Shown here piece after piece: positions 13,633 through 31,570 of a stretch of DNA of 64,000 bases. Source of the stretch: a virus. The position numbers and the translations under genes are program-made. The stretch is from the IMG/VR virus record IMGVR_UViG_3300035698_011044, positions 1 through 64,000 of that record; one strand, given 5' to 3'. The notes under the pieces are model-generated. The model saw only the letters and a program-made list of their open reading frames with translations. It searched no databases and was not told where the DNA came from. The stretch's first letter is position 1. The number at the start of each line of letters is the position of its first letter.

Positions 13633-15990
13633 CTACATAATGCTGTCACTGATGTTTTTGAAGACACGACCAATCTCTTTTGAATCTTTGATTGCAGCAT
13701 CACTCAGATTTTTGAAATCCACATCGAGTTTTAGGTCTGCCCAGAACAAGCTATTTTCAGCATTTAAGCGAACAGGATGCTTTGAAGCTTTCCGATATAC
13801 CCCCAAATGAATACCATGCTCTGCAATCATATTCGGTTTGCCGTCAACTACCTTTATGCCGGAATTTCTAACTATTCTCAGAAGCATCTCCTCATCGTAA
13901 CCCTTCTTGACTTTCTCGATTTTCTCCAATTTATCGAGTTCGTTTTCTCTTGCATCCCTGGTACGGTCCCACCAGTCACGACTAATGAAGTGAACCCCGA
14001 GCATCCTATTATCGACAGCATGATTGTCGTAGCACTCAAGCCCATACACACTCATAGAGGCGACATGCTGCTCGATAAGAGAGGGTTCCTCTTTCCTGAT
14101 AAGGATATCGATATCGGTGAGTAATACGTGGTCGTACTTTTTGAGACGCTCTTCTACTTCTGGAGACACGAATCGGAGGGCTGCAGCTTTATTTCCATCA
14201 GACTCGCTGAGTTCGATGCATACAACGGCGTCTCCAGGGTAAGCTTTTTCGGCGCAATACTTAAACATGTCGGCATAGGCAACCATCTTCTTATTATAGA
14301 CAACAGCGATGGCGCACGCACAGCGTGTTCCGTTTCCAGTGGAATCCATTGGGATGCCACCTTCGACTGGACTTATTTCTTCAGTTTTAACATTTAAAGC
14401 AGGTTTATTGCAAGATTCTTCCACAAAAGACTCTTTAGGTTTCTCTTTTTCAACATTAAGAGGAGCTTTGGCAGGAGACAGACTTGCCATCATTAAGCGA
14501 TACTTAGCCATTTTGCTTGGCACTCCCCAGTCCGGATGACCCTTTCCGAATCCTGCAGGAAGTTCAAATTCAGCATAAGGACGATTGTCGGTTTTGGTTA
14601 CAGCCACACTCTTTGGGGCAACTAGGTTCTGACGGATAGGTTGAATTGTACCAGCATTAATGCCATCGCCAGGCTTCACCATGAATCCATGCTTTTTCCG
14701 AAGGTTCCACTTTGCTCTCTTGCTTGGGACATTCCAGTCAGGATGACCCTCTCCGAAATCTGCAGGAAGACCATCGTCAAACTGCTCAACAATATCTGAT
14801 AGGTTTTCGTACACATAGACTCTGCGATCAGACATGCTGTCCTCGCGATTAGTATCCTTGTCTATAAAGCTAGTTGCGCCGGCAAGAAGAAGATCGTCGA
14901 TGAGAGGTTGGGGTCCGGTTCCGTTTGTCACAATCTTGATCGGCATATTTGGACGCGCTTTCCTTAAATGCGCAACGAGCTCTACGATACCCGGGTAAAG
15001 AGTAGGCTCTCCTCCAGTAATACGAATAGAGTCACAGCCTCCGAAGAGTGCCAGATTCGCAGTGCTCTTTGCCATGGCAAGAGGAATGAGATGCGGCAAA
15101 GAAGTATCGTCAATAGTTTTGCAGCCTTCACACCGACGATTACATGCTCTTCCAATAAATACTTCTGAAATTTTTCCCTCTTCCATACCGCTAAACTCCT
15201 TGTAATGGTTAATGTTGTTTATGATTACTTCTGGTAATTGCGAGCTATCTATCTGGACAATAGACTTCCAGGAACTCTCTGCCCCCACTGTTGGATGAAA
15301 ATCCTGAGCGTTCGGCAACTTGTCCCACTTATCTTTAATCCAGAGGTCCATATCGACGCACTCTGCCCCGTCCCCGATATGAGAGGTAATCATCTTGCCT
15401 TTAATCTCTTCCAGGCTCTCTCGCACTGCTGTGAAGTGGTGGAACTTGACGTCAAGCTCTGCTATGCTGGGAATAGCCGACCCACGGATCCCTGCAAAGT
15501 CTTTGATATCTGCCTTAACGAATACGACTGGCCTGCAGCGCTCTTCCGGATAAACTCTGTAGAAGATCGACTTAACATAAGTATGCATCCCACAGCGAAA
15601 CGCATCATTGTGACCATCATTTAGCATCACGGACTGAATTGCCTGGCGAAGCTGATCTACATCCCAGACCTCATCTGTGTCGATGAGCATAATGTAATCA
15701 CAGGGACGATGGTCTGAAAAATTAGCGAGTCTTATACGAGAGAATCCCGCCTCATAATGACTTGCTTGGTCTGCGTAAGAACCTCTAGCAAACCGAATTT
15801 TTTCATCAAGATCATATCTTCTTCCCCAATCCAACTGTCGTTGATAGCAAGTATTTTCGACAGGATTTCCGCTCCAGTCCACATTGGAATGTATAAACAA
15901 AATATTATCCACGAAGGGATAGATCGATTCGAGACTCGCCTCTAGGAACTCATGAGCCCTGGTTGTTTTATAGAGTGCTGTTATTTTCAT
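13633..15990 (-). CDS. Multidomain protein: GT-A glycosyltransferase + partial radical SAM + repeats + second GT-like domain
   Basis: IMLIDTDEVW (DxD); CNRRCEGC (CX3CX2C), ITGGEPTL and IVTNG; two LPxxFGxGHPDWxVPSK repeats; LLTDIDIL. Confidence 0.75.
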   Translation of the reverse strand: MKITALYKTTRAHEFLEASLESIYPFVDNILFIHSNVDWSGNPVENTCYQRQLDWGRRYDLDEKIRFARGSYADQASHYEAGFSRIRLANFSDHRPCDYIMLIDTDEVWDVDQLRQAIQSVMLNDGHNDAFRCGMHTYVKSIFYRVYPEERCRPVVFVKADIKDFAGIRGSAIPSIAELDVKFHHFTAVRESLEEIKGKMITSHIGDGAECVDMDLWIKDKWDKLPNAQDFHPTVGAESSWKSIVQIDSSQLPEVIINNINHYKEFSGMEEGKISEVFIGRACNRRCEGCKTIDDTSLPHLIPLAMAKSTANLALFGGCDSIRITGGEPTLYPGIVELVAHLRKARPNMPIKIVTNGTGPQPLIDDLLLAGATSFIDKDTNREDSMSDRRVYVYENLSDIVEQFDDGLPADFGEGHPDWNVPSKRAKWNLRKKHGFMVKPGDGINAGTIQPIRQNLVAPKSVAVTKTDNRPYAEFELPAGFGKGHPDWGVPSKMAKYRLMMASLSPAKAPLNVEKEKPKESFVEESCNKPALNVKTEEISPVEGGIPMDSTGNGTRCACAIAVVYNKKMVAYADMFKYCAEKAYPGDAVVCIELSESDGNKAAALRFVSPEVEERLKKYDHVLLTDIDILIRKEEPSLIEQHVASMSVYGLECYDNHAVDNRMLGVHFISRDWWDRTRDARENELDKLEKIEKVKKGYDEEMLLRIVRNSGIKVVDGKPNMIAEHGIHLGVYRKASKHPVRLNAENSLFWADLKLDVDFKNLSDAAIKDSKEIGRVFKNISDSIM

Positions 15991-16247
15991 AAATCATCTT
16001 TCGAAGAGTCGCCATACAAAACAACTGCCCCCTTAAACTTCTCGTGACAATCTTCACCGTGATCAAGACCGCCATCATCATTTAATATGTGGTAGACCTG
16101 CACAACAACGTGCTGAACATCCAAAATTACGCATCCATCAGATTCTAACGGATGCTTGAATGTGTCCTTGTTAATCATAACCGATTTGTGCGAATACCCA
16201 CTATTCATCAAATTCCCAAGTTTTTTGTATAATGTTCTTAACTGCAT
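15987..16247 (-). CDS. Hypothetical protein
   Basis: 86 aa, GAGG RBS, ATGA overlap. Confidence 0.6.
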   Translation of the reverse strand: MQLRTLYKKLGNLMNSGYSHKSVMINKDTFKHPLESDGCVILDVQHVVVQVYHILNDDGGLDHGEDCHEKFKGAVVLYGDSSKDDL

Positions 16248-16249
16248 AA

Positions 16250-16450
16250 CTATTCCTCACTTTCGATTTCATTTGTTCTCACCTTCATATATGGACAGTC
16301 TGGATGGATGGTACGCGTATCGCACTCTTTGTCAACATTAACATATCTGTTACTGTCTATTTCTGAGCATATTACCCCTACGTGTTCATCGTACTCAGAC
16401 GCTGGACAGTCATCACAGCTAGTTACTGTGCGCTTATATTCAAAACTCAT
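16250..16450 (-). CDS. Small Cys-rich protein
   Basis: MSFEYK...SCDDCP...VIC...IHPDCP; ATGA-coupled start. Confidence 0.55.
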   Translation of the reverse strand: MSFEYKRTVTSCDDCPASEYDEHVGVICSEIDSNRYVNVDKECDTRTIHPDCPYMKVRTNEIESEE

Positions 16451-16713
16451 TGCCCCTCGCAATCCATTGTCACTCTCAGATGAGCGCACTCTCTTCCATG
16501 AATGTTTGCAACAATCTCATCCTGACAGAGATTCCCTTGATTGTTTTCGCAAGCAATCTGAAAACACTTAAGCTCCGACAATCTTCCGTCAGCCTTAGCT
16601 TCTGCCCACGCTGCTCCAGCACGAAACGCATCTGCACGCTGGTTTGCTTCTTTATATCTAGCCCAACTCATTCCGTCTTCATATCCTACAACTGCCTCGT
16701 CGATACTTTGCAT
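16447..16713 (-). CDS. Small Cys-rich hypothetical protein
   Basis: GAGGAATAGT-ATG start; C-terminal Cys cluster. Confidence 0.55.
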   Translation of the reverse strand: MQSIDEAVVGYEDGMSWARYKEANQRADAFRAGAAWAEAKADGRLSELKCFQIACENNQGNLCQDEIVANIHGRECAHLRVTMDCEGQ

Positions 16714-16721
16714 ACTATTCC

Positions 16722-17441
16722 TCACTTCTCAAGTTGATATTTACCTGGAAAGGAAAACGCTGAGAATTTATCATTCCCAACAAGCTCCCATTTATACCCA
16801 TGACTCTGATACCGTTCTACATCTGCATCGAGCTGGTGTTTAATACTCTTCAGGTTCCCGCCTGACTTCCCCTGGTAGTGGATAATGGGAGAGCTGGTCA
16901 GGATTGCTGTACATAAGTCTCGCATATAAACTTGCTGGAAGATCCAGTCGTCTCCGCAAAACCATTCAATATCTTCAGGTATAGAAACGTAGAGGTTCTT
17001 CCTGACAGTGAAATCCCAGCCCTGCTTAATCCCTGTTTGGCACACATAGCTCAATCCTGTCTTCTTAGAATACTTCTCCAGGTTGGTAGTATGGACAACA
17101 GCTCCAACAGTTTCCTCTTTCTCAAAAACCTTGAGAGTGTCAGAGATGAAGTTGCTGGTGATCTCAATATCGTTATTCAGGAAGCATAGCAGCTCATCAC
17201 CAGTCTCTTTAGCGAACCAGTTCCATAGATGATTGAGAGGAGTGTTCCCCGTTCCGAGCACAATCTTAAAGCCAAACATCTTGCGGATCTCTTCGTAGTA
17301 CGCTTCAGTCCCAGGCTCAGTGGATCCGTTATCGTAAATGGTCAGCTTGAACGGAGCGTCCTGGTAGAGAAGATCGCTTACAAGTTGCTTCGTGTAAGCA
17401 AGATTGTTTATGTTTACTATTAAGCAGTGGACGTTATTCAT
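16722..17441 (-). CDS. Glycosyltransferase family 2
   Basis: IYDNGSTEPGT, LCFLNNDI, WFCGDDW motifs. Confidence 0.85.
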   Translation of the reverse strand: MNNVHCLIVNINNLAYTKQLVSDLLYQDAPFKLTIYDNGSTEPGTEAYYEEIRKMFGFKIVLGTGNTPLNHLWNWFAKETGDELLCFLNNDIEITSNFISDTLKVFEKEETVGAVVHTTNLEKYSKKTGLSYVCQTGIKQGWDFTVRKNLYVSIPEDIEWFCGDDWIFQQVYMRDLCTAILTSSPIIHYQGKSGGNLKSIKHQLDADVERYQSHGYKWELVGNDKFSAFSFPGKYQLEK

Positions 17442-17793: not shown

Positions 17794-17804
17794 ACTATTT
17801 CTCC

Positions 17805-18407
17805 TTATCTCGGTTGATTCCTGCTTCCTGCAGGGTGAAGAGTGTAGAGATATTTCACACTGTCAGGAACTGTACACATACAGAGCCCCTGCCTAACTAT
17901 CTCATCGACGATTGCTTTGTTGTAATCATAATCCTCAAACTCAGTGTCAGGCCACTTGATATGAAAGAGAGCCTTCCCGATCAAATAACTTCCCACCGTG
18001 TACATATTAGAGCCTTTGTCGAGAGCCGCTTTAAGCTGAAGAGCAGTATCCCATCGCTTACATGGCCAGCCTGGACAACCCGTTGGAGCTGTCTTGAACT
18101 GAGAATAATCTTCTGCTGCAATATGCTCTGCGTCATACATGATGAAATCAGCCTTATGCTTTATGCAATCCAGAAGATCCTCGCACACAAAATCTTCCGT
18201 AATGCAATCGTCATCATCCAAGAAGAGAATGTAATCTCCCTTTGCGTGCTGGACACCGTTATTGCGGTGCTCATAGGGAAGCTTCTCCCCGATCATAGCA
18301 ACTATCTCGTAATCAACCTTGCCCTTAAATGCGTTGTGGACTGAATTGAATGCTCGCTCCAGATAGAATGGCCTGAGTCCGAGGGATGGTATAACTACTG
18401 ATATCAT
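17805..18407 (-). CDS. Glycosyltransferase family 2
   Basis: ISVVIPS, RNNGVQHAKGDYILFLDDDD, FEDY motifs. Confidence 0.85.
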   Translation of the reverse strand: MISVVIPSLGLRPFYLERAFNSVHNAFKGKVDYEIVAMIGEKLPYEHRNNGVQHAKGDYILFLDDDDCITEDFVCEDLLDCIKHKADFIMYDAEHIAAEDYSQFKTAPTGCPGWPCKRWDTALQLKAALDKGSNMYTVGSYLIGKALFHIKWPDTEFEDYDYNKAIVDEIVRQGLCMCTVPDSVKYLYTLHPAGSRNQPR

Positions 18408-18538
18408 TCGGCTTCCTCTTCCTTCTTGAGACACTTGTCACACTTGTATTCAACCTTACCCTCGCCCGCAAATACAACAACCTTGCGCCATTTGTTGCAT
18501 GTCTCACACCGGCCCTTTTTCCACCCAATAGCTTCCAT
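18404..18538 (-). CDS. Small zinc-finger protein
   Basis: MEAIGWKKGRCETC...KCDKC; ATGA overlap with the GT2 gene. Confidence 0.5.
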   Translation of the reverse strand: MEAIGWKKGRCETCNKWRKVVVFAGEGKVEYKCDKCLKKEEEAE

Positions 18539-18676
18539 TGCTGTCTTTCTTCTGAAAATAATGAGTGTCAGGCGGGTGCGGGAACGTGGACGCGAGACCG
18601 TACCCAGCAAGGATGCTTGAACCTGACACTCAAACTTTACTTCAATTTATATCTGGAGGTGTCCACGCTCTTTCTT

Positions 18677-18705
18677 AATATAGCATCATCACATCTGGAG
18701 TGCAA
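18677..18705 (-). promoter_or_regulatory. Internal sigma70-type promoter (extended -10)
   Basis: TTGCAC-17 bp-TATATT with TG one base upstream of the -10. Confidence 0.55.
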
Positions 18706-18708
18706 CTA

Positions 18709-19457
18709 CTATATCTCAAGACTATATTTACCAACATGCTCTTCAAAGAAGTTGTCTATAAATTTCAGCTTCTTCTCAATAGGCATATCGTCCTGCTGTA
18801 GGCAATCGACATTTTTATTGTACCAGAAGTGCTTTTTCTTGTCAGTGTTATTGGTATACCCATCGCGATATCCGTCGGCAATTCCCACGCTTCCAAAAGT
18901 GTTCAACTCACTCTTTATGATATAGCAATTGTTGTACTGGACCTTTACTAGATCGTAGCCATACTTCGAGAGAATATCTTCAAGGCACTGTATGGAGAAT
19001 CCATAAAAATGACTCCCTGACGCATAGTAATAGTCATCACTGTAATTAACCGAAAATTTAATCGGAGGAGGAATCTTTTCGTTTAACTCCATACACACAA
19101 GATAAGGCTGGTATTCTGAGAGCACAGCTTTAAGAACATGGAAATCATACCCGTCAATATCAAGAATCCGAAATCGCGAGAGACATTGTTTTGCTTAAGA
19201 ATATCCACAATGTTATTCGGAGTTACCCTTACATTTATTACGATGTTATAGTCATCCCGGGGGTACACAGATAATCTCGCTGGATCCAGATCAAAGTAAA
19301 TCTTCCTATACCCCTCCAGCTCTTGCAAAAACGAATTGCCCGAAGCCCCAATATCAACCGCAGTAAGGACGCTGTTTTTCCCCAAATAATTAAGAATATC
19401 CTGCACAGTCAAATAATCAACCCCAGCAACGGGCATATCTGCATACTTCGGATCCAT
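18709..19457 (-). pseudogene. FkbM-like SAM methyltransferase split by a frameshift
   Basis: 5' ORF has AVDIGA...DFGFL; the other frame continues LDIDGYDFHVLKAVLSEYQPYLVCMELNEKIPPP; the family motif LSxDIDGxD is broken near 19160. Confidence 0.75.
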
Positions 19458-19477: not shown

Positions 19478-20293
19478 TTATTCGCGAGATTCAAATAAAT
19501 ACGGAACCTCAACATGAACTGCATTATGTTTAAAGGACAAGTCCTCAAGCAAAATTCCGTGGGATATTCTCTCTTCGTCAAGCCACCGATCGTTCAGTCT
19601 GTCAAGAGGCCAGTTGCCAGAGCGGTTGTTGGGATTGCACTCTTGGGTTTTGTTGTTAGGGATCCCAACCACAATACTTCTGTTGCAGCACCGCATATAA
19701 AGATCTCGCATTGGGGAATCTGCCAGAGCTCCTTCGAGTTGGTTTGGCCCATTGTAATTCATAACTCGCAACCGGTAGAGTATTGGAGCTGTTCTATAAA
19801 CACTCCCGTCCAAGCTCATCCCGTAGTCCCACTCTTTTGATCCACACCCTCGCCACACCCAGCAGTTCTCTGACACGAACTCTGGAGGAGGTGCAGGAAC
19901 ATCTCTCATATAGGAATGATTGATCTGAGGCGATAAGCGGAGGGATAGACACATGGTATCGGGATCCTTAGCAAACTCCTGAAAATTTTTGTCCTCAGTA
20001 GAAAATGGGAACACGAAAATATCGTCGTCCACTAGGAACTGAATGAATGGAGTGTGTTCTGATATAGTGTCCAGCAGCACTCCTCGAAATCCTCGCTCAT
20101 CCTCTTCGACAAAATCTACCCAGTTATACATTCCAATTAGAGAATTGTAACCCTGGCGGAATCTCTGATTAGTAGCTTTCCAGATAATCGTAGGTCTAAA
20201 TACTACAGCCTCCGGCCACATTTTCAGCATGCTCCGGATTAGCAGTTCAAGTTGGCAAGCACGGTCTTTTGAGAAGATGATGATTTGTATCAT
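19478..20293 (-). CDS. GT-A fold glycosyltransferase-like protein
   Basis: IIIFSKDRACQLELLIRS and QFLVDDDIF motifs. Confidence 0.75.
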   Translation of the reverse strand: MIQIIIFSKDRACQLELLIRSMLKMWPEAVVFRPTIIWKATNQRFRQGYNSLIGMYNWVDFVEEDERGFRGVLLDTISEHTPFIQFLVDDDIFVFPFSTEDKNFQEFAKDPDTMCLSLRLSPQINHSYMRDVPAPPPEFVSENCWVWRGCGSKEWDYGMSLDGSVYRTAPILYRLRVMNYNGPNQLEGALADSPMRDLYMRCCNRSIVVGIPNNKTQECNPNNRSGNWPLDRLNDRWLDEERISHGILLEDLSFKHNAVHVEVPYLFESRE

Positions 20294-20994
20294 TCATACA
20301 TTCCTGGGTTAGTATATTTATCAAGAGCAACCTTTAGAATAATCGATTTGTTGTATTTCTCCAAAACCCTAAGGCAGAAGTCGCTATCCTCCGCTGTTCC
20401 GTGGGTAAAGTCTCCCCACTCTTTCCATTTCACCTCAGCCAGAACCTCTTTTAATACCGCACATGGTCCACCGTGACATTTTCCAGCAAGAGACCCATAA
20501 GCACTCATCGGATTGCCAGAGAACTTTCCGGTGGGGTAGTAATGATCGAAGAGTTCCTGAGACCACATGACCTCGACAAGGAAATACTCCTTGTCAAATT
20601 CACGATTACCAGGAATCCATAGATGGTTAAGATGAACGATATCGTGTCGATTAAACTTTCCGCGAACAATCTCCACGCGCTGAGGATGAGAAAAGTCGTC
20701 TGCGTCATGGTAGAGGACGATGTCTCCTTCTGCAGCATCTCCTCCGGCCTGGCGATTTGGTCCATGGGTTAATATCTTTTGGTGTTTGATAATACGAACG
20801 GGAAACCGGCGGTAATAAGCTGTCTCTGATCGGAACACTGAATCTTCAAACGACTCGGGGCACTCGCTAATAGAGAATACCATTTCACTCGGCAGTGCTG
20901 TTCCCTCGGAATACATTTTTACAACTCGATGCATCCACTTTATATCTTTTGGGGCAACCGGCACAACTACGGATAAACTTAGATTCTTTCCCAT
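20290..20994 (-). CDS. Glycosyltransferase family 2
   Basis: LSVVVP, GDIVLYHDADDFSHPQR, AEDSDF motifs. Confidence 0.85.
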   Translation of the reverse strand: MGKNLSLSVVVPVAPKDIKWMHRVVKMYSEGTALPSEMVFSISECPESFEDSVFRSETAYYRRFPVRIIKHQKILTHGPNRQAGGDAAEGDIVLYHDADDFSHPQRVEIVRGKFNRHDIVHLNHLWIPGNREFDKEYFLVEVMWSQELFDHYYPTGKFSGNPMSAYGSLAGKCHGGPCAVLKEVLAEVKWKEWGDFTHGTAEDSDFCLRVLEKYNKSIILKVALDKYTNPGMYE

Positions 20995-23412: not shown

Positions 23413-23723
23413 TATGTTCCCCAAACTCTGCTTACAGCTATTTTTGTATGGCATTTATCGCACTCCAGAACATGTACTCCAAAATTAGAGTAAGAGTTCA
23501 TCTCCACTTCAATAATATCAAAGTGCCCACATCCAATATGTTCCATTCGATGCATCTCCTCGTGAATTTCTGGTATTGTAAACTCCCAAAGAATAACAGT
23601 GCTATTGCCATCCGCAGTGGTTATCCTAAACTTATGAGTCTTCTTCGTCTTCTCCTTCGATGTTTGTGAAAAAATCGACAAGTAAAGACTCTTCACTTTC
23701 GACAGATAATGTTTTGTTCTCAT
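23412..23723 (-). CDS. Hypothetical zinc-ribbon protein
   Basis: HIGCG...ECDKCH; overlaps both neighbours. Confidence 0.5.
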   Translation of the reverse strand: MRTKHYLSKVKSLYLSIFSQTSKEKTKKTHKFRITTADGNSTVILWEFTIPEIHEEMHRMEHIGCGHFDIIEVEMNSYSNFGVHVLECDKCHTKIAVSRVWGT

Positions 23724-24412
23724 CAGCTTTCATCCGTATATACTGGTCGTCCGCACCCTTCATATTTGTTTCCTATGAATGAATAGTTATTCGGCAATGG
23801 AATAACGAATGGCAGTTCGTCCCCACGAATCGTTTTCCGGTCATCGTGAGTGAGCATGTCTTCTTCATACAAAGGATACATGATGTTTGAGTAGAATGTT
23901 GTGTCTACTCCAAAGTACAACTTCTCTGGCTTCATGCAAATTGTGTCTCCAAACGGAGTATCAATAAACCTTGATAGTATTCTCTGAAATCCGGCCATCT
24001 GACTCGGTACTCCGCCCCACATTCCACCCGTAATCGGATGAGTATGGTTCTTGTGGTCTCTCATGTTATGTATCGTTTTTCCGGATTCTTCCCACTCCTT
24101 GACAGCAACAGCCTCTCGCTCACTCAGAAGAGCGTCGCAATCCCTGGAGATGAATCTCTCAACATCTGGGTCGTCAAATGACGGGAATGCCCGCCAGAAC
24201 TCTTTCATATAGCCCTCGAATGATTCCCCAACCCTTATTTCAGCACCAAGCCGTTTTAGTTCACCTACGGTCTCTAATGGCACCGTGTCGTCAATATAGA
24301 AACGACAAGTCCAGTCAGGATATACATCTGGAGCTACTTTTGCGTTTCGCACTGCCCCATCGGTAAACATAGGGTCCTTGCCCCATAAACAAAAACTTAT
24401 AATCTTTTTCAC
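23723..24412 (-). CDS. Putative GT-A-like glycosyltransferase
   Basis: KKIISFCLWG, ISRDCD (DxD), MRDH...ITGGMWG motifs; GTG start after AGGAGA. Confidence 0.6.
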   Translation of the reverse strand: MKKIISFCLWGKDPMFTDGAVRNAKVAPDVYPDWTCRFYIDDTVPLETVGELKRLGAEIRVGESFEGYMKEFWRAFPSFDDPDVERFISRDCDALLSEREAVAVKEWEESGKTIHNMRDHKNHTHPITGGMWGGVPSQMAGFQRILSRFIDTPFGDTICMKPEKLYFGVDTTFYSNIMYPLYEEDMLTHDDRKTIRGDELPFVIPLPNNYSFIGNKYEGCGRPVYTDES

Positions 24413-24420
24413 ACGTTCTC

Positions 24421-25026
24421 CTATTTCTGTATCGTTATGCAAGCTATGCCTATAATATCCTCGCCAACTCCATAATGCTTTAAATCAAAAAACTCCTTAG
24501 CATCATAGCAAGGAATCCATCTTAACCCACTTTTCTTAAACGTCTCAAAATCTATAGACGCATCATGCCTACCCACTATCAAATGTTGCCACAATTGGAT
24601 TTCAAGAGGAGAGTATGATTTTATCCAGTGGCGCACAAAATAACCTGGCACAGAAAACGGAACTGTAACATAGAGAATCCCACCCGTTTTAATTCTCCTT
24701 AACATGCTTCCAAGAGCCACAAGGTCTCCATACAAAGACGTTTTTTGGTTGTAACAATCTAACCCAAGATGCTCCACAACAGAAACACAAATGCCTGTAT
24801 CAACAGACTCTCTATCAGGCATTCCTGCGCCAGTAATAAGATTAGCCTGTATAATCCCATCATGAGCGGGGTTTAGATCATATTGACGATACTCGTTTTT
24901 CTCAAGGTCCACCCCATAGGTCTCCTTGCCCGTCTCGCACCCAAAGTCGCAGATCACTTTTCCTTCAACGCCTTTAAGTTTCTCTGTTATCCATGGAACT
25001 TCACAAGATCTTCCGCCATCTCCCAT
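24421..25026 (-). CDS. SAM-dependent methyltransferase
   Basis: ICDFGC, CVSVVEHLGL, GGILYVTVP motifs. Confidence 0.75.
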   Translation of the reverse strand: MGDGGRSCEVPWITEKLKGVEGKVICDFGCETGKETYGVDLEKNEYRQYDLNPAHDGIIQANLITGAGMPDRESVDTGICVSVVEHLGLDCYNQKTSLYGDLVALGSMLRRIKTGGILYVTVPFSVPGYFVRHWIKSYSPLEIQLWQHLIVGRHDASIDFETFKKSGLRWIPCYDAKEFFDLKHYGVGEDIIGIACITIQK

Positions 25027-25658
25027 TAATAAGTCGCCTCCAAAATATAAAGCCCTCGCTCATCAGAATTTTGTGTACTGCGAGAAATACCATACTCAAA
25101 TTTGTTAATAAAATCAAAAACCGCATTATTAACATCTGGAATGGCCTTAACATCATCCAGCCCTATCACATGGCAGCAATCTGCACATTGATAGAGATCG
25201 TAATAAGCTGCTGTCTCTGTGTGTTTGCCATCAACCCACCCAAATTCATACCAGGAAGATCTACCAGACTCTGTAACACGAGCAACAATGTCCGGCATGA
25301 TTTCAAGTGATGACCCATGATAGAATTTAATCCTGTTTCCAAACTTTTCATTTAAAATATCAACAGGATTTTGACACCAAGCCTGAGGATCCATTGTGTC
25401 AATGGTAGCATCCTCGTCTGCAAGCATGGTCAAATAACAGAAAAGCCCCTTGTTGGTTCCTATCTCTAATATCTTTGGTTTACAAGACCCGTCACTATAA
25501 ACAGCATCAGGAACAAGAAACTCTGCCAACAATTCAACCTGCTCCTTCATCCCTTTGCGATTGGGATTATGCAACAAAGCACCCTCGTTATGTTCTTGTG
25601 GAGAACAGCTCTTCAGTCTTTCTACGAAGTCCCAGTCTATTTTATCCCAGAGATCCAT
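25026..25658 (-). CDS. Class I SAM-dependent methyltransferase (Methyltransf_24-like)
   Basis: ILEIGTNKG, WVDGKH, GLDD motifs. Confidence 0.8.
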   Translation of the reverse strand: MDLWDKIDWDFVERLKSCSPQEHNEGALLHNPNRKGMKEQVELLAEFLVPDAVYSDGSCKPKILEIGTNKGLFCYLTMLADEDATIDTMDPQAWCQNPVDILNEKFGNRIKFYHGSSLEIMPDIVARVTESGRSSWYEFGWVDGKHTETAAYYDLYQCADCCHVIGLDDVKAIPDVNNAVFDFINKFEYGISRSTQNSDERGLYILEATY

Positions 25659-26465
25659 CTAAGCCTCCAATCCAGCATCTAAAAATGGAACAGTATTTGG
25701 GATCAGCCCCATTCTGTGCTGTCTCATCCGGTTCCTGTAAATGTCTACATCTTCCTCGTAGTAAATTGCCCGCTTATCGTTTCCGTCCTCGATGCTGAGA
25801 ACTTTGATGTCCCAGCAATTCTTCGGCTTAAATCCAAAAGAATAGGCTCGGTGCGCCATATCTCCATCAGCACAATAATACCGGTAAGCAGTATCGTACA
25901 TCCCAACTTTGCGGAAAACATCTTTCTTGTAAAGTCCATAATTAAGGACAATCTCATATTTTGCCACAGTGTTAAAGGCAACATCTCCATCTCCAGGCTG
26001 ACTCACTGCAGGTATAGTATTGTGGAGAAACCAGCCATTCTCTCGCCGGTTCCCATAATACCAATCAGTGCTTTCCAGATCCTCCCTGCAGCCACGCTTC
26101 CAATTGAAGAGATAGAAGTCGTGCTCCTCGTCGATCTCCTTAATCACATCATCCCAGGAACTAACGAGAAGAGTGTCGTCGTTAAACTGACACACAATCT
26201 CGTTACTCGCTGCTTCAATTGCCAGATTCATGTAGTGGGGGTAGGAAGATCTCTCTCCAACCTTAATGACTTTTATGCGAGAGAAAACATCGCTCTCAGT
26301 ATCCTGGCTATACCCTCGATACTTATCTAAAAACTCCAGTGTTCCATCCGTAGATCCTCCATCAACCAGGATCAGCTCAATTCGATCATCCGCAAGGACA
26401 GTATTCTCCAATAGGTCCGGAAGAAACTCTACCCGATTCAATGTTCCTGTGATTACGCTAATCAT
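25659..26465 (-). CDS. Glycosyltransferase family 2
   Basis: ISVITGTLNR, LVDGGSTDGT, QFNDD, YCADGD motifs; ATGA-coupled start. Confidence 0.85.
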   Translation of the reverse strand: MISVITGTLNRVEFLPDLLENTVLADDRIELILVDGGSTDGTLEFLDKYRGYSQDTESDVFSRIKVIKVGERSSYPHYMNLAIEAASNEIVCQFNDDTLLVSSWDDVIKEIDEEHDFYLFNWKRGCREDLESTDWYYGNRRENGWFLHNTIPAVSQPGDGDVAFNTVAKYEIVLNYGLYKKDVFRKVGMYDTAYRYYCADGDMAHRAYSFGFKPKNCWDIKVLSIEDGNDKRAIYYEEDVDIYRNRMRQHRMGLIPNTVPFLDAGLEA

Positions 26466-27106
26466 CCAACAATCTCTCTTAGTTTCATTTTGAAGTAGTC
26501 GTAGAGCTTCTGTTCGCTTGGAAGCTTGCAATACATGGCGAGGATATCGTCTGCAGTGGCGAGAAGATCTGAAGCAGAATATTCCATGCTTTTTATCACG
26601 CTAACCTCCGTAGAGCTATTAAAAGTCCCAGCAGCAAATGGACCCTCCACTAGCTTCTCGTGATTTCCAAGACGATATCCAAATTTTACCAGGAGACTAT
26701 TTAAAGAGTTGTGCGACCACATGTTGATATGGTACGCCCATGTTCCCTCGGCACTTCCACACATCAGCCTTGTAACCGCCAACATTTTGGGAAAGTCGCG
26801 ACTACCACAGGCTTCAAGGTACTGTGCGCATAGTCTTCGCATGTCAGGAACCCCAATATAGAGAACTCCCCCAGGCTTCAAAGCAAGCGTCCACTTAATC
26901 ATCATTCCAAGTGCCTCATAGTAATTGAGATGCTCAAAGAAGTGGTGAGAGTAGATCTCCTCGCACGGCTCATAGTCGAACTTCAGCAAGTCGGCATGGA
27001 TATCAGCATTAACCGTCACGGTGTTGTGCTCGGATTGCGGGAAATCAATATTAACATAGCCCTGTTTATACTGAGCCCCGCATCCGCAATGGTATTTAAT
27101 CCCCAT
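26462..27106 (-). CDS. SAM-dependent methyltransferase (type 11-like)
   Basis: HCGCG...YVNID, SHHFFEH, LKPGGVLYIGVPD motifs. Confidence 0.85.
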   Translation of the reverse strand: MGIKYHCGCGAQYKQGYVNIDFPQSEHNTVTVNADIHADLLKFDYEPCEEIYSHHFFEHLNYYEALGMMIKWTLALKPGGVLYIGVPDMRRLCAQYLEACGSRDFPKMLAVTRLMCGSAEGTWAYHINMWSHNSLNSLLVKFGYRLGNHEKLVEGPFAAGTFNSSTEVSVIKSMEYSASDLLATADDILAMYCKLPSEQKLYDYFKMKLREIVG

Positions 27107-27453
27107 TATTTCTTGCCAGCCCTGAAAGCGTTAAGCTCTGTCTCCATGTTGATAGCAAGCTGACGATACTGATCTCTCTCGTTTGCAATAGCATTGAAAG
27201 ATGTCTGAATGCCGTACAAGACATCCATGATCTCAAGGTTCTGCCTGTTCTTCGTGTTGAAGAGCTTGCTCATGTTGGCAACAACTTCATCAATCGTCGG
27301 CAGTCTCTGCTCCGGCTGCTGAGGGGCTGCAGGAGTCTGTGGGATCGCAGGAGCTGGCGGAACTACTGGGGCAGCCTTCTCCGGAGTTACCGGTGGGGTC
27401 ATCGGGATGACGTTTGTTGTTAGGTTCTTTCTTGCTGGTTTCTTGTTGCTCAT
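27106..27453 (-). CDS. Pro-rich / coiled-coil hypothetical protein
   Basis: AGGAGG RBS; Pro/Ala-rich N-terminal half, helical C-terminal half. Confidence 0.6.
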   Translation of the reverse strand: MSNKKPARKNLTTNVIPMTPPVTPEKAAPVVPPAPAIPQTPAAPQQPEQRLPTIDEVVANMSKLFNTKNRQNLEIMDVLYGIQTSFNAIANERDQYRQLAINMETELNAFRAGKK

Positions 27454-27745
27454 TACGAGCCTCCTTGTAGGTGGTTGAACATTCGGTTCCATCATCTATT
27501 ACTAAAACATTTATTGATACAGTTTCTTTTCCAGTATCACCAGTCCCCTTGCAACACGGGCAAGTTATAAGATTAAACGAGATATTCATAAGGTGTCCAG
27601 GCTCAGTAGAAAATCCGTTCCCACCTCGAATTGTAGTTGATGTCCTATTCCATATCTTCTGAAACCCATCACAAACAGGACAACTGTATGTGTCCTTATT
27701 TCCTGGCCATAGAGGAAGTTTTGCTGGTATAAAACCTGACATCAT
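27290..27745 (-). CDS. DnaJ-type zinc-finger protein
   Basis: CPVCDG...CPCCKGTG; 3' part overlaps the next gene, so the true extent is uncertain. Confidence 0.45.
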   Translation of the reverse strand: MMSGFIPAKLPLWPGNKDTYSCPVCDGFQKIWNRTSTTIRGGNGFSTEPGHLMNISFNLITCPCCKGTGDTGKETVSINVLVIDDGTECSTTYKEARNEQQETSKKEPNNKRHPDDPTGNSGEGCPSSSASSCDPTDSCSPSAAGAETADD

Positions 27746-28305
27746 TTCACCGCCTCCACGTTAAGACTTATAAGAGTCCCATGCACCTTATCCATATGAG
27801 GAATGTATGCTTGGGAGTAATCATCAATATCTGCATGCTCGGTCTTGCGCCAGTCGTACTTGCGAACTTTACTGAACCCGGCGTTTACAAGTTCGTAGGA
27901 GAGAAGATCGTATGTAAATAGAGAATTATGGATATTGTAAAGATAGTCCTGCCGTCCCATAATTGGACCAACAACTTCGCTGAAATTCTTGCGTGTCATA
28001 TAAACCTTACACAACGCATCGAAATCTGGAACAGATATTCGACAAACTCCTCCATAATCAAGAACTCTTGCCCACTCACGCAAAGCATGCCGAACATGTC
28101 TGCGAGGGAAGTGTTCGAGAACATGACATACATAAACTAATATCGCGCTTCCGTCTTCAAATAGCTCAAGGTCTTCGACTGGAGACTGGCAATTAATATG
28201 CGGATATTCTACAGCATCTATATGATGAGTAAAGCGATCTCCATAATCACGTTTTCCGCACCCCAGACATAGCCTTAAACCAAATCCTTCAATAGTTTTT
28301 CCCAC
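27742..28305 (-). CDS. SAM-dependent methyltransferase (type 11-like)
   Basis: LCLGCG, CHVLEHF, GGVCRISVPD, SLNVEAVK motifs. Confidence 0.85.
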   Translation of the reverse strand: MGKTIEGFGLRLCLGCGKRDYGDRFTHHIDAVEYPHINCQSPVEDLELFEDGSAILVYVCHVLEHFPRRHVRHALREWARVLDYGGVCRISVPDFDALCKVYMTRKNFSEVVGPIMGRQDYLYNIHNSLFTYDLLSYELVNAGFSKVRKYDWRKTEHADIDDYSQAYIPHMDKVHGTLISLNVEAVK

Positions 28306-29096
28306 AACTTTCTTTCTGCAACAGTATATTCAGAAGCCTTGTCAAAGTTTTCTCGAATAGCCTTTTGTCTTTTATTATAATTTAGTTCCGTAGCATTGAC
28401 AAGCAATCTCTCCAATTCACTTAAATTACTAAACCATAACACTCCACGCTTATTGAAATAATCAGCAATTTTATTCGCCCCCCAATAGATAGGAATAGTC
28501 CCAGTCCTGAAAGCGTCTACAATTTTCTCGGTAAATAAATGGTCTGATTTATCATTCTCAACAACAATGGTATACCGGTATCGTTTAAGAGCTTCAAGCT
28601 TCTCTTCTATCTCATAATATCCACGTCCGCACAGGAAATCAATCTTGTACGCAAACCTCTCGGCTATCCTATGCCGGAGCTTATGACCTTTAGTATCATT
28701 TTTGCTAGAAGCAATCATTGAAATACCCTGAGTCTTGGGATAGATAAATTGCTGATCCGGATGAACCCAGCATCCTCCTGGGGACAAAAGGATATGCTTT
28801 GGTGATAAGATATACTTGGCCTCCGGAAGAACAATCCAGTCAAAATCGTCCTGCCCGCCATTGAAGATATATTTATAGGCTTCAGGGTTAATTACCTCTG
28901 GCTCCAATAGCCAAGCAATCTTGATCTTAGCACCAGAAGTCTTTGCTTCACGAAAACATTGATCCGTAAACACAGCAATATCCTGCGACTCTTCGCCACG
29001 ACACCACTCGAAATAACCGATATCGACATCGTATATGCCATTCTGGTAATTGTAGGTATGTGCAAAATTCTTGTCATGTAATTTAATCTTTACCAT
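28275..29096 (-). CDS. GT10-like (alpha-1,3-fucosyltransferase family) glycosyltransferase
   Basis: YRYTIVVEN...FTEKIVDAFRTGTIPIYWG motif. Confidence 0.8.
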   Translation of the reverse strand: MVKIKLHDKNFAHTYNYQNGIYDVDIGYFEWCRGEESQDIAVFTDQCFREAKTSGAKIKIAWLLEPEVINPEAYKYIFNGGQDDFDWIVLPEAKYILSPKHILLSPGGCWVHPDQQFIYPKTQGISMIASSKNDTKGHKLRHRIAERFAYKIDFLCGRGYYEIEEKLEALKRYRYTIVVENDKSDHLFTEKIVDAFRTGTIPIYWGANKIADYFNKRGVLWFSNLSELERLLVNATELNYNKRQKAIRENFDKASEYTVAERKLWEKLLKDLV

Positions 29097-29844
29097 GCGG
29101 ATCTCCTTGGATCTTCTTATACGGTTCTTTTGCTTTAATTCTCCACGTGCAGTTTGACTGCTCTCCACCTGGCCTTTTGTGTTCAGACAAATTGTTCAGC
29201 CCATTATAGCAATATAATATATCTTCAACGAACCTTGAGTGTTCATGTCCAGCCATTTCGATTACAGGAGCCATGATTGCCAAATCTCCAGCCATTGGAT
29301 AAAACTCACCATTTTCATCAATCAGGTCTTCAGGCTTGATTAGCCTAAACAGCCACACCCTAAACGTCCTCAAGTGAGATATGAGCCATGGCTTGTTAAC
29401 ATCCCTAGCGTCCGCAAGATCTTCCTGCAGTGCAGCCCACCCAACAGCAACACCGCTTCTTTCTGTGTAAATCTCATAGCTTCCGTAAGAAGTCCACACT
29501 TTAGGATCACTATAGATCTGCTGCACTCTATCAAAAACATTGTTGTGTGGCAACCAATCATCACCATCGACGTTTATGCAGATATCTTCCGGGCGGATCT
29601 CTGGGCGATTTAATGTGTGATAATAATTACCTGCGACAAATCTCTTCTCTGTGTTTTGAATGAAGACGAATCTCCCATCAGTATCCGCAAACACCTTAAT
29701 CTTCTGAGGAGTTTCGTCAACAGAGAGGTCGTCTATAATATAACACACCCAATCTTCAACGCTCTGAGACTTGATTGACTCGAGACATCTCTCGATATAA
29801 TCTTCGCAATTCCAGCAAGTAGTTACTATTCTGAGCATTTGCAT
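29083..29844 (-). CDS. Glycosyltransferase family 2 (paralog B)
   Basis: IDDLSVD, INVDGDDW, SHLRTF, AGDLAIM motifs. Confidence 0.85.
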   Translation of the reverse strand: MQMLRIVTTCWNCEDYIERCLESIKSQSVEDWVCYIIDDLSVDETPQKIKVFADTDGRFVFIQNTEKRFVAGNYYHTLNRPEIRPEDICINVDGDDWLPHNNVFDRVQQIYSDPKVWTSYGSYEIYTERSGVAVGWAALQEDLADARDVNKPWLISHLRTFRVWLFRLIKPEDLIDENGEFYPMAGDLAIMAPVIEMAGHEHSRFVEDILYCYNGLNNLSEHKRPGGEQSNCTWRIKAKEPYKKIQGDPHGKD

Positions 29845-30575
29845 TTCAACTTTCTGTACTGAGGCTTCTCTTTTATCTTCCAGCCGAGCCGCATCTGCAG
29901 CTTCTTGTTTTTGTTCCAGTCTGACACTGGATTATCAGCTCGGTATTTATATAACACCTCTTTAATGAACTTTGAATTTTCCAAGCCAGCCATCTCAAGC
30001 ATTGGTATCATTATTGCAAGATCTCCAGCCATTGGATACCAAATTCCATCGGACCCTATAAGGTCTTCCCGTTTAATCTTCCTGAAGAGCCAGGTTTTAA
30101 ATGTCCTGAGATGAGACGCATTCCAGTTTTTGTTTGGATCTCTGAGATCATCAATACTCTCGATCTGCTTGGAATTTCCACGAATGATATTGTTCGGTTC
30201 CGCAATGCAGTCAAAGCTACCGTAAGTAATCCATACATCAGGATCTTCGTATTCTCGTAGCACAACTCCAAGAACACCATTGTGGGCAAGAGAGTCGTCG
30301 CCATCCACGTTGATACAAATATCCTCTGGATGGAACTGAGAGAGATGAACTACAGAATAACAGTTTCCTGGAACATAAAGTTTTCGGTAATTTGAAAGAA
30401 CTGAAAATCGAGAATCATCCTTAGTCAGCTCTCGCGCCCGCTCCCATGTTCTGTCTGTAGACATGTCGTCAAGAATGTAGCACTCCCACTCCTGGACAGT
30501 CTGAGCTTTAATGGAGATAATGCACTGCTCTATATATCGAACACAGTTCCAGCATGGAACAATTATCCTTATCAC
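29826..30575 (-). CDS. Glycosyltransferase family 2 (paralog A)
   Basis: LDDMSTD, INVDGDDS, SHLRTF, AGDLAIM motifs. Confidence 0.85.
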   Translation of the reverse strand: MIRIIVPCWNCVRYIEQCIISIKAQTVQEWECYILDDMSTDRTWERARELTKDDSRFSVLSNYRKLYVPGNCYSVVHLSQFHPEDICINVDGDDSLAHNGVLGVVLREYEDPDVWITYGSFDCIAEPNNIIRGNSKQIESIDDLRDPNKNWNASHLRTFKTWLFRKIKREDLIGSDGIWYPMAGDLAIMIPMLEMAGLENSKFIKEVLYKYRADNPVSDWNKNKKLQMRLGWKIKEKPQYRKLKCKCSE

Positions 30576-31570
30576 ACGTATCTCCTTATCAATTTTCCGA
30601 AAGAAGAGTTGTCACAGAATCTTCCCGCAGCTATACTCATAATAAACAGGTGGTGAGTTTTGTACATTGCGAACGCTTCCTCCAGCCCCTCAAGGATTGA
30701 AGATGGCATGGTGTTTTTTAGCATCACGCCGGTTTTCCCTGGAGTCATTGTCGCAGCAGCTCCACCGCTCGGAGTCATTACCGGAATGCACCCGCATCTT
30801 TGAGCTTCAACGCTCGCGAGAGAGAATGATTCCTGCTGAGAAGGGATGCAAAGAACTTGGTGCTGCGCATATATGTCTGGCATGTCTTCGTTTTTTATTT
30901 CTCCCCAGAACACAATGCGATCTGACTCAAATTCCTTCTTAAGCGTGTCGAGATATTCAGTAGATGTCTCATTCCATAAGTCAGGACTTCCGTAAATATC
31001 GAGAATGCAATCCAGATTTCGGGCTGCCATGCAAAGACGATCAATATTTTTAGTTGGATAAATTGCCCCCGCATACATAATGCTCCTGGGAGAAGAGCTC
31101 CTGCCGCGAAATCGAAAAGTGCTTGGATCCACGAAGTGAGGAATGACCCAGATCATCTCTCGCGGGAACTTGAATGATAGAATGTTGTTTGCGTGAGTAT
31201 CACTGAGTGTTACAAAGACATCAAACTTAGCCATATCCTTAACGGTTTCTTTCCCAGGATTCCAACAGTTGAAATATCTCACCCATATCTGGTGTCGCTG
31301 CTTCCTGAGAGGAACGCCTATTGGATAAGAGGCGAAGACAATCACGTCGTAATGGCTGTAGTCATCCGGATTCGTCATATACTTCTGCAGGTGATGGTCT
31401 TGAACAGTCTCGTTCTTCCTTGTAGATTTGCCTGTTATAGTTACGTCGTACCCCAACTTCTTGCATGACTCAGCAGCGTTAAACACTGCCACACAGCTTC
31501 CGCCGTACGCTCTCCCAGAATTGTGCATCCCGTCATAGTAGAATAGAATGTGTGGATTGTCGCCTCTCAT
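30572..31570 (-). CDS. Glycosyltransferase family 4 (GT-B)
   Basis: IMYAGAIYPTKN and ESFSLASVEAQRCG (EX7E) motifs. Confidence 0.85.
   Translation of the reverse strand: MRGDNPHILFYYDGMHNSGRAYGGSCVAVFNAAESCKKLGYDVTITGKSTRKNETVQDHHLQKYMTNPDDYSHYDVIVFASYPIGVPLRKQRHQIWVRYFNCWNPGKETVKDMAKFDVFVTLSDTHANNILSFKFPREMIWVIPHFVDPSTFRFRGRSSSPRSIMYAGAIYPTKNIDRLCMAARNLDCILDIYGSPDLWNETSTEYLDTLKKEFESDRIVFWGEIKNEDMPDIYAQHQVLCIPSQQESFSLASVEAQRCGCIPVMTPSGGAAATMTPGKTGVMLKNTMPSSILEGLEEAFAMYKTHHLFIMSIAAGRFCDNSSFGKLIRRYV

Follow-up and report, generated by a model that had tools for sequence, protein, structure and literature searches.

IMG/VR virus record IMGVR_UViG_3300035698_011044 is 87,553 bp long and carries a 119-bp direct terminal repeat at its ends, so it is the complete genome of an uncultured salt-lake phage. 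The window analyzed here is the first 64,000 nucleotides of that record, and nearly all of its genes are on the minus strand. Between the gene for the large terminase (TerL) and that for a P22-like portal protein, positions 13633-31570 hold an island of 28 minus-strand open reading frames (ORFs) that spans 18 kb, or 20% of the genome, and is dominated by genes for predicted glycosyltransferases (GTs) and S-adenosylmethionine (SAM) methyltransferases (MTs) (Table 1). When the longest ORFs were taken and the junctions were counted through to the portal gene, 24 of 29 overlapped or abutted. The coordinates, gene content, and near-complete coupling agree essentially with a first-pass annotation that had described a GT/MT island at this site.

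The number of soluble GTs encoded by the island is approximately 11 to 13 (up to 14 GT domains); six genes are for SAM methyltransferases, and one of the six is broken. Seven of the GTs exceeded the Pfam gathering cut-offs of 23.3 bits for GT2 (PF00535) and 26.4 bits for GT4/GT1 (PF00534); these were six GT2 proteins (29.2-63.7 bits) and one GT4/GT1 protein. The terms GT10-like and exostosin-like denote resemblances only because both proteins miss the Pfam cut-offs (by less than 1 bit for GT10 and RXYLT1_C). The first-pass annotation had listed about 13 GT-like genes. Among these it had named three atypical GTs, which fared differently. The 366-amino acid (aa) protein is a virus-specific GT-B enzyme, and its Atlas model superposed on bacterial GT4 clusters with TM scores of 0.63-0.66. 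For the 239-aa ORF at 23723-24442, the nearest named clusters were GT8/nucleotide-diphospho-sugar transferases at 0.92 with few shared features, which provides a lead only. The 271-aa ORF drew no match in Pfam, PHROG, NCBIfam, or PDB searches, and its DxD-like motif was read by eye. The true start of the GT2 gene at 25659-26531 is probably near 26465.

Two of the six methyltransferases passed Pfam cut-offs; the others were a borderline match, a paralogue, a weak match, and a frameshifted FkbM-type gene, in agreement with the earlier count of six with one frameshifted. The O-methyltransferase (20979-21533) shares 27 to 28% identity with Methyltransf_24 genes in cassettes of other phages (loci L020, L021, and L026, described below). 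The FkbM-family gene is interrupted by a -1 frame change near 19125-19140. Full-length homologues (245-288 aa) align to both halves, which are 36% and 55% identical to the homologue P0162, and PF05050 is present in 4 of the 11 homologues; the kinship to this family is clear, and the frame is not intact. This relationship emerged from the homologue search, whereas BLAST of a verified FkbM protein (from L014) against the two fragments gave no match. Contigs from two other sequencing runs span the site with zero differences, and the frameshift is therefore real rather than an assembly error. Two further ORFs, at 27290-27745 and 27106-27495, overlap by 206 nt in different frames and may be one frameshifted or recoded gene; no search matched either to an enzyme, and no homologue was found among the related loci.

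Table 1. Genes of the glycosyltransferase/methyltransferase island and of its borders, in order from terL to the capsid gene. Bit scores are from Pfam searches; G001 is a complete 98-kb relative and L015 a related locus.
Feature	Coordinates	Strand	Length (aa)	Evidence and remarks
Large terminase, terL	35108-37171	-	687	Upstream border of variable region; Pfam Terminase_6N/6C; phrog_979, E 6e-122
Non-glycan genes between terL and island	31743-35082	-		Seven ORFs, including ORFs of 231 aa, 62 aa (conserved in G001), and 89 aa
N4 gp49-like gene	33297-33764	-		Between terL and island
HNH endonuclease	32772-33263	-		Between terL and island
Weak ThyX-like gene	32220-32756	-	178	Thy1, 26.0 bits (cut-off 24.8)
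Protein with one hydrophobic segment	31743-32219	-	158	Between terL and island
GT4/GT1 GT-B glycosyltransferase	30572-31570	-	332	First island gene; Glycos_transf_1, 74 bits; phrog_2170 glycosyltransferase
GT2	29826-30575	-	249	63.7 bits; paralogue of 29083-29844
GT2	29083-29844	-	253	57.4 bits; 47% identity to 29826-30575
GT10-like (fucosyltransferase C-terminal-like)	28275-29168	-	297	Glyco_transf_10 (PF00852), 23.0 bits (cut-off 23.9)
Class I SAM methyltransferase	27742-28305	-	187	Methyltransf_11, 29.1 bits; phrog_6636 methyltransferase
CxxC/CxxC zinc-ribbon ORF	27290-27745	-		No Pfam family
Pro/Thr-rich and helical ORF	27106-27495	-		No Pfam family
SAM methyltransferase paralogue	26462-27106	-	214	BLASTP E 4e-6 to 27742-28305; Methyltransf_23/11 sub-threshold
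GT2	25659-26531	-		45.8 bits; domain from aa 25
Methyltransferase-like	25026-25658	-		Methyltransf_24, borderline, 26.2 bits (cut-off 26.3)
Methyltransferase-like, weak	24421-25026	-		DUF268/MT_11-like, 19.9 bits (cut-off 25)
Virus-specific protein, possible GT-A	23723-24442	-	239	Nearest Atlas clusters 95-100% viral
Virus-specific GT-B glycosyltransferase	22354-23454	-	366	No Pfam family; Atlas clusters named glycosyltransferase at 0.98, mostly viral
Exostosin/RXYLT1-like putative GT	21530-22357	-	275	RXYLT1_C (PF24785), 26.6 bits (cut-off 27); Exostosin_GT47 (PF03016), E 0.06
O-methyltransferase, Methyltransf_24/CmcI-rhamnosyl-O-MT type	20979-21533	-	184	Methyltransf_24, 63.6 bits; Methyltransf_3, 26.9 bits
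GT2	20290-20994	-	234	29.2 bits
Protein of unknown family	19478-20293	-	271	VDDDIF, DxD-like motif
FkbM-family SAM methyltransferase, frameshifted	18709-19457	-		N half 19083-19457; C half 18709-19125
GT2	17805-18434	-	209	38.3 bits; phrog_14775 glycosyltransferase
GT2	16722-17441	-	239	33.6 bits
Three small ORFs	15987-16725	-	92, 79, 86	79-aa ORF Cys-rich; no family in any library searched
Multidomain enzyme	13633-15990	-	785	Two GT-A domains and partial radical-SAM
Zinc-ribbon protein, four Cys	13219-13470	-	83	Between domain X and portal throughout clade; 48% identity to G001
P22-like portal	11066-13222	-	718	Downstream border of island; P22_portal, 111.6 bits, E 5e-32; 60% identity to G001
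Major capsid protein	7893-9359	-		phrog_334 major head protein; 78% identity to G001, 45% to L015

The island gene nearest the portal encodes a 785-aa protein that the first-pass annotation had taken for a multidomain GT. Its two GT-A domains support that description, to which a radical-SAM segment must be added. The N-terminal domain (residues 1-263) is a GT2-like GT-A domain modeled by AlphaFold2 (AF2) with a predicted local distance difference test (pLDDT) score above 90. VIA-align placed it closest to the glycocin S-glycosyltransferases ThuS (Z 15.1) and SunS (Z 14.2), followed by many polysaccharide and teichoic-acid GT2 enzymes (Z 12-13.8); TarS, TarP, and RmlT are among its structural neighbors. 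The likeness of the modeled domain to ThuS and SunS is a near tie with that to the GT2 enzymes and is only a lead. Residues 276-376 match Radical_SAM (PF04055) at 47.9 bits over profile positions 3-102 of 166 only, with C283-x3-C287-x2-C290 retained. The pLDDT falls below 50 over residues 274-405, and this part of the protein may be a remnant.

The C-terminal domain, residues 540-785, is referred to here as X. AF2 modeled it from a 94-row alignment (pLDDT 92) as a GT-A fold whose nearest structures are the GT6 ABO transferases, chondroitin synthase, and GlyE (Foldseek E ∼1e-4, TM ∼0.45), with GT8 also among the matches. Two aspartates that form a DxD motif (D87 and D89) and H189 are invariant. 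No Pfam model describes X, and its occurrence is almost confined to viral sequence. HMMER, run exhaustively against 1.84 billion representatives, returned 238 clusters (50% identity) at E ≤1e-3 and 128 at ≤1e-10. Members are either stand-alone proteins of 240 to 290 aa or fusions. Among 42 members scanned for partner domains, mostly the longer ones, an N-terminal radical-SAM domain was present in nine, a GT32-like domain in four, a GT2 domain above cut-off in one, and an intein in one, and 27 contained nothing known. PDB sequence matches of the radical-SAM partners were generic (PqqE, viperin-like proteins, MoaA, HydE, and SkfB), and we rejected them as a guide to function. We also considered the 239-aa (23723-24442) and 271-aa ORFs as relatives of X, and the comparison showed no relation. 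When X was used as a tblastn query, no match emerged among 50,697 deposited phage records. Pattern matching across 185,579 species genomes, which reaches close relatives only and so does not prove absence from cells, gave one confirmed locus, L027, which looks phage-like.

All island enzymes appear to be soluble, as the first-pass annotation had proposed. None of the island proteins contains a 19-residue segment with a Kyte-Doolittle value above 1.5, and across the whole genome, no ORF (116 in total) encodes the three or more hydrophobic segments expected of a polytopic membrane protein. We found no flippase, polymerase, GtrA, or initiating phosphoglycosyltransferase, and the locus does not fit the Wzx/Wzy, ABC, or Gtr-type/seroconversion schemes. 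Likewise, neither a DNA polymerase nor enzymes of nucleoside diphosphate (NDP)-sugar synthesis turned up among the ORFs scanned across the genome, in agreement with the earlier reading of the window.

An obvious concern was that the island might be a chimeric join with a bacterial polysaccharide locus, and this possibility was rejected. The stretch is present in 12 salt-lake metagenome runs. Contigs from four runs, with the likely source left out, cover 30 of 30 bins at ≥99% identity with zero indels, and other-run contigs bridge both borders (12500-14522 and 12500-15182 at the portal side; 31197-32400 and 31492-32400 at the terL side). The 785-aa protein is on record from four contigs. The composition of the island also matches that of the genome, with a GC content of 43.6% compared to 43.1% for the rest and a tetranucleotide correlation of 0.919 (0.906-0.963 for other 18-kb segments).

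Related loci were collected by searches with the portal protein, which yielded two loci in IMG/VR and 28 in metagenomes; neither megablast of the island nor tblastn of the capsid protein and of X revealed a close relative among deposited phages. The complete 98-kb genome of one relative, G001, has structural genes in common with this phage (capsid 78%, portal 60%, and TerL 55% identity), and of the island it retains only X (38%), plus the adjoining zinc-ribbon gene (48%). To define the clade, duplicates were removed, and loci were kept if portal identity was 37% or more and the sequence upstream of the portal gene extended for 2 kb or more, giving 13 distinct phages. In 11 of these (exceptions, L034 and L042), X is no more than 2 kb upstream from the portal gene, and it was absent from all six more distant loci with portals of 27 to 32% identity. 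In the L014 locus, whose contig has the same length as that of L034 (61,753 bp), X adjoins terL. A TerL-like gene is directly upstream of the portal gene in L044 and L046, which are more distant; this is the arrangement that the first-pass annotation had assumed to be normal, and we conclude that the cassette has been inserted at that junction. Apart from X, homologues in related cassettes exist for a single island gene, the GT2 at 16722-17441, which is 42% identical to L039:2536-3921 and 39% identical to L032:5826-7181; both of those homologues are directly upstream of X. X and, less strictly, this GT2 are the conserved elements beside the portal in the clade, and every other enzyme is exchanged among the relatives.

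Cassette content differs in every member of the clade. G001 and L028/L031 carry Lar, radical-SAM/SPASM, thiamine pyrophosphate (TPP) E1 alpha/beta-like, B12-radical-SAM, radical-SAM, and GT2-X genes. In L015, an epimerase/dehydratase, DegT, and a radical-SAM protein accompany three GT2 enzymes and one methyltransferase; L016 has a GT2, three methyltransferases, and two radical-SAM proteins; and L032 has GT2 genes and two methyltransferases. The L029 cassette comprises a GT2, two TylF-type O-methyltransferases, a sulfotransferase, a radical-SAM protein, and GT32-X, whereas L039 contains a radical-SAM gene, three GT2 genes, and a Tad2-like anti-defense gene. Several of these genes deserve separate mention. 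The L029 sulfotransferase (2412-2993, PF03567) is beside the two TylF-type enzymes, which hints at glycans that are sulfated as well as methylated. The Tad2-like gene (L039:4907-5251), of a type that counters Thoeris defense, is between X and the zinc-ribbon and portal genes, and the site thus also takes anti-defense cargo. In cassettes of the G001 type, split TPP-dependent E1 alpha/beta-like genes (L004:4015-5162 and L031:4013-5160) are found between radical-SAM genes, an arrangement that resembles branched-chain sugar biosynthesis in antibiotic pathways.

X also occurs in other phage lineages. In L020, L021, and L026, the portal, protease, and capsid genes lead directly into GT9-MT, X, GT2, two CmcI-type methyltransferase, GT2, and epimerase genes, and in L024, X is near the portal gene. 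The capsid proteins directly upstream of the X cassettes (L021:7205-8155, L026:7023-7973, and L020:7232-8188) share a Thr/Ser-rich loop, GT-x-P-[TS]-TT-[TS]-KPTT-[TS]-KVT, near residues 75-90; to judge from its sequence, this loop is a possible O-glycosylation site, which we regard as a lead only. The X genes of L017/L018 and L019 are among sugar-tailoring genes, yet next to genes for PhoH, dUTPase, or replication proteins, and that of L027 is two ORFs from a C5-DNA methylase gene.

From these gene contents and contexts, we consider that the island most likely builds a methylated glycan on the phage's own virion proteins, an interpretation to which we give about even confidence. The island would function as a late-expressed, wholly cytoplasmic glycan assembly line, with the host supplying nucleotide sugars and SAM, and a complex, partly O-methylated glycan would be made directly on at least one protein of the particle. 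As the core enzyme of the clade, X may form the linkage or add the core sugar on a conserved acceptor, the obvious candidate for which would be the capsid protein or some other head protein that is exposed. The variable GTs and O-methyltransferases would then add a strain-specific outer glycan, varying in the manner of an O-antigen locus, and the radical-SAM, TPP, aminotransferase, and sulfotransferase enzymes of the relatives might contribute to that outer part as well. Such a coat would shield or solubilize the virion or tune its adsorption.

Several features favor virion glycosylation. The GTs and methyltransferases are soluble and come without export machinery. The island is part of the late/structural block, on the strand of the structural genes, with junctions that overlap or abut, and X is anchored by the portal across the clade. 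In other lineages, X cassettes adjoin the capsid gene (L020, L021, and L026) or terL (L014) or are near the portal gene (L024). The GT-A fold of X with its invariant DxD and His and the adjacency of a TerL-like gene to the portal gene in L044 and L046 also count in favor, as do, as leads, the Thr/Ser-rich capsid loop and the resemblance of the N-terminal domain to ThuS and SunS. The cassettes vary and carry sugar-tailoring enzymes (epimerase/dehydratase, DegT, TylF/CmcI-type O-methyltransferases, and sulfotransferase), neither a ThyA homologue nor a C5-DNA methylase nor an integrase/resolvase was found, and there are published precedents in mycobacteriophages, including Cluster J, and in PBCV-1. 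The first-pass annotation had placed a methylated glycan on the capsid or fibers; the portal anchoring, the head-gene neighbors, and the missing DNA-precursor enzymes and integrases speak indirectly for that proposal, and the failure to find an acceptor extension speaks against it.

Other observations also weigh against glycosylation of the particle. No structural protein has a region with a Ser/Thr content above 0.43 in a 40-residue window, and the search of the genome for Ser/Thr- or Pro/Thr-rich acceptors gave nothing convincing. Set against its counterparts in relatives (78% and 45% identity), the capsid protein is not extended at the C terminus or elsewhere. The argument from gene position is one of guilt by association, and the site may be a hot spot for accessory genes, as the Tad2-like gene in L039 illustrates. 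Three contexts of X are non-structural: L017/L018 and L019, with nucleotide-metabolism or replication genes, and L027, with its C5-DNA methylase. Finally, one methyltransferase of the island is a fixed pseudogene, and the radical-SAM domain looks degenerate.

The alternative that survives best, although we consider it unlikely, is remodeling of the host envelope. According to this explanation, the soluble GTs and methyltransferases modify lipid-linked or wall polymers on the cytoplasmic side of the membrane, in a TarP-like manner, and host flippases export the products, thereby blocking superinfection or preventing progeny from sticking to debris. Small soluble GT2 and GT4 enzymes of this type normally act on undecaprenyl-linked glycans, and the presence of TarS, TarP, and RmlT among the structural neighbors of the N-terminal domain is consistent with such a role. 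NCBIfam similarities to GTs for exopolysaccharide, teichuronic acid, and colanic acid are weak and all far below cut-offs. Cyanophages rich in GTs have been read as modifiers of the host surface in the passages cited (PMC12801897). Yet the 116 ORFs include no initiating phosphoglycosyltransferase, flippase, polymerase, or polytopic membrane protein, and the genes are within the late structural block, with clade-wide anchoring to the portal. Lysogenic conversion is unlikely, given that no integrase or resolvase scored above cut-off, and a lytic phage would have a single infection cycle in which to remake a surface polymer by means of 13 GTs.

Slightly less probable still is hypermodification of DNA, in which a base of the phage DNA would receive an oligosaccharide just before the genome is packaged, as protection from restriction and other nucleases. 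Published passages describe phage DNA bearing tri-arabinosyl or ∼1-kDa oligosaccharide-like groups (PMC13326640; PMC9023294). The island adjoins packaging genes and has the weak ThyX-like and HNH genes next to it, the X homologue of L027 is close to a C5-DNA methylase, and L039 has an anti-defense gene at the site. The pathways set out in the cited portions of the literature require a base hydroxylated by way of a ThyA homologue or of a C5-methyltransferase plus a 5mYOX dioxygenase (10.1101/2023.12.21.572611; PMC13326640). In six-frame searches of the four X-bearing genomes (G000, this phage, to G003), neither ThyA (PF00303) nor C5-methyltransferase (PF00145) was found in any, and the positive controls were detected; Tet_JBP (PF12851) was likewise found in none of the four, but its positive control was silent too. 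The phage has no DNA polymerase of its own among the ORFs scanned, and the routine assembly of its genome from the 12 salt-lake runs may argue weakly in the same direction. Moreover, 13 GTs, O-methyltransferases, and the sulfotransferase of a relative far exceed any known DNA glycan.

A product outside the virion, either a glycocin-like glycosylated peptide or protein made from a small Cys-rich ORF or a free cytoplasmic methylated oligosaccharide used for host takeover or competition, is improbable: the best matches of the N-terminal domain to ThuS and SunS, which glycosylate peptide Cys/Ser, lead other GT2 enzymes by just ∼1 to 2 Z units; of the four small Cys-rich ORFs in the island or at its border (13219-13470, 16250-16489, 18404-18610, and 27290-27745), all except the zinc-ribbon protein lack conservation in relatives; the SPASM and B12 radical-SAM enzymes of the relatives are of types common in peptide maturation, but the radical-SAM genes tested gave generic matches, to PqqE and SkfB and also to viperin and MoaA; and a leader-peptide protease and an exporter are absent.

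Returning to virion glycosylation, we put forward with somewhat less than even confidence the more specific proposal that this clade of virulent phages with P22-type portals has a two-layer "virion serotype" system. A fixed core, formed by the nearly virus-exclusive X domain and often accompanied by radical-SAM, would be held beside the portal, and a variable outer cassette of GTs, O-methyl- and sulfotransferases, and radical-SAM or TPP enzymes for sugar tailoring would provide strain-specific exotic glycans that diversify as O-antigens do. X might then mark the same function in many lineages, as represented by its 238 clusters.

The closest published parallels are in mycobacteriophages. In the passages cited, Cluster J phages have eight to ten inserted genes, including at least five GTs and methyltransferases, between the capsid and connector genes; these vary among members, and their targets are given as unknown (PMC3706429). 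Glycans at the C termini of capsid and tail-tube subunits are reported for Che8, Corndog, and other mycobacteriophages (Freeman 2023, as cited in PMC12619734). As in those phages, the window has soluble phage GTs and SAM methyltransferases in or beside the virion structural genes, within the structural operon, and their content varies among relatives. In contrast, the lineage is unrelated (P22-type portal, salt-lake habitat), the island is about twice as large as that of Cluster J, a GT-A family (X) recurrently linked or fused to radical-SAM domains anchors the cassette, and the capsid protein lacks a C-terminal acceptor segment; the comparison with tail-tube subunits would not apply if the phage were a podovirus.

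Chlorovirus PBCV-1 (capsid protein Vp54; A064R, A075L, and A111/114R) uses soluble multidomain viral GTs and a sugar O-methyltransferase with no membrane machinery, to which the 785-aa protein with its two GT-A domains and the CmcI/Methyltransf_24-type methyltransferases of the island are comparable; for example, A064R is described as having two rhamnosyltransferase domains and a 2-O-methyltransferase and as acting on the capsid glycan (PMC7019647). The likeness is one of mechanism only, and the chlorovirus differs in its eukaryotic host and capsid fold; in the cited parts of that report, its GT genes do not appear as one packaging/portal cassette. The nearest look-alikes of the 366-aa GT-B enzyme and of X are partly in giant viruses. 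Cyanomyovirus S-SCSM2R has a similar number of GT genes, 13 predicted, possibly the record for marine phages, with unproven targets according to the passages cited (PMC12801897). As described there, it is a myovirus with a much larger genome, its GTs (ORF96-310) do not form one portal-anchored cassette, genes for nucleotide-sugar and 3-deoxy-D-manno-octulosonate (KDO) synthesis are present, and the proposed targets of the GTs are the host cell wall or DNA. Here, by comparison, the GTs are in one 18-kb co-directional block of an 87-kb genome in which no sugar-nucleotide genes were found.

Phage DNA glycosylation (T4 alpha/beta-GT, GTs linked to 5mYOX or ThyS, and arabinosyl-5-hydroxycytosine in RB69/DLP3) also employs phage GT-A or GT-B enzymes late, shortly before packaging, in the accounts cited (PMC13326640; 10.1101/2023.12.21.572611). 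It is set apart from the present system by the ThyA homologue and C5-methyltransferase that were not found here and by the many more GTs and O-methyltransferases of the island. As for cellular systems, those for serine-rich-repeat adhesins (GtfA/B and GlyE) use soluble GTs to add sugars stepwise to a protein in the bacterial cytoplasm. The structures that X matches include that of GlyE, and no serine-rich acceptor was found in the phage. Full-text searches on phage capsid and virion glycosylation turned up no account of the X family or of a variable cassette attached to a core that is anchored at the portal.

The genes that flank the island, and the rest of the genome, add some context. TerL consists of a canonical part (residues 1-463) followed by a C-terminal extension of ∼220 aa beyond the nuclease domain; the extension is conserved, and in L014, L044, and L046, the BLASTP matches cover the extension only. 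The G001 protein (42177-46322) is a single open frame of 1381 aa to which TerL matches in three pieces, an intein-like interruption pattern. The TerL matches to Methanoculleus and Rhizobium viruses (∼43%) were rejected as uninformative about the host, which is inferred to be bacterial from the predicted DnaB, SSB, and muramoyl-alanine amidase. The ThyX-like gene also matches phrog_6721, for which no function is known; it gave no match in the PDB sequence search and has no counterpart in G001. In the zinc-ribbon protein, C13, C25, C44, and C47 are invariant (alignment A4), and its hidden Markov model matched upstream of the portal gene in 14 of the 28 metagenome loci, 11 of them with E < 1e-11. 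The capsid gene probably starts ∼33 codons downstream of the longest-ORF start.

Elsewhere in the genome are genes for DnaB, SSB, an ERF recombinase, an Amidase_3 endolysin, large unknown structural proteins, and a 4428-aa polyvalent protein that runs from 62214-64000 of the window to genome position 75500 (L001:214-13500). The last of these contains an ART-PolyVal domain (E 8e-44), a PBECR5 nuclease domain, and a weak GGDEF match, has a 5858-aa counterpart in G001, and is probably a virion protein that is ejected. In the replication region (47479-49792), an SMC/AAA_15-like ATPase (433 aa) adjoins a patatin-like phospholipase (325 aa), a pair that resembles defense/anti-defense modules. The PHROG label "phosphoheptose isomerase" for a 141-aa ORF (43003-43428) was rejected; it matches the HAD-like hypothetical protein 2obb (E 2e-18) and belongs to no Pfam family. 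No tRNA genes were found in the rest of the genome, and scans for promoters and terminators gave sites no more frequent than in shuffled sequence.

The novelty claimed by the first-pass annotation was overstated, given the Cluster J insertions and the 13-GT cyanomyovirus already in print in the passages cited (PMC3706429; PMC12801897), whereas its view that the scale is unusual for a phage of this type is supported for an 87-kb genome. What is new here is an undescribed viral GT-A family, X, that organizes the cassette and is often paired with radical-SAM domains, in an unusually large island of a new lineage. The cassettes also offer soluble GTs, O-methyltransferases for sugars, and radical-SAM enzymes of sugar tailoring, with new specificities. 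Were DNA or the host envelope the target instead, no larger phage pathway of that kind would be known, and it would operate without the usual precursor enzymes or export machinery. If the glycan is on the particle, then virion glycosylation would be a widespread, fast-diversifying trait of environmental phages, extending beyond actinobacteriophages and algal viruses, for which domain X would serve as a searchable marker, and it would bear on adsorption, stability in brine, escape from recognition by hosts or grazers, and phage engineering.

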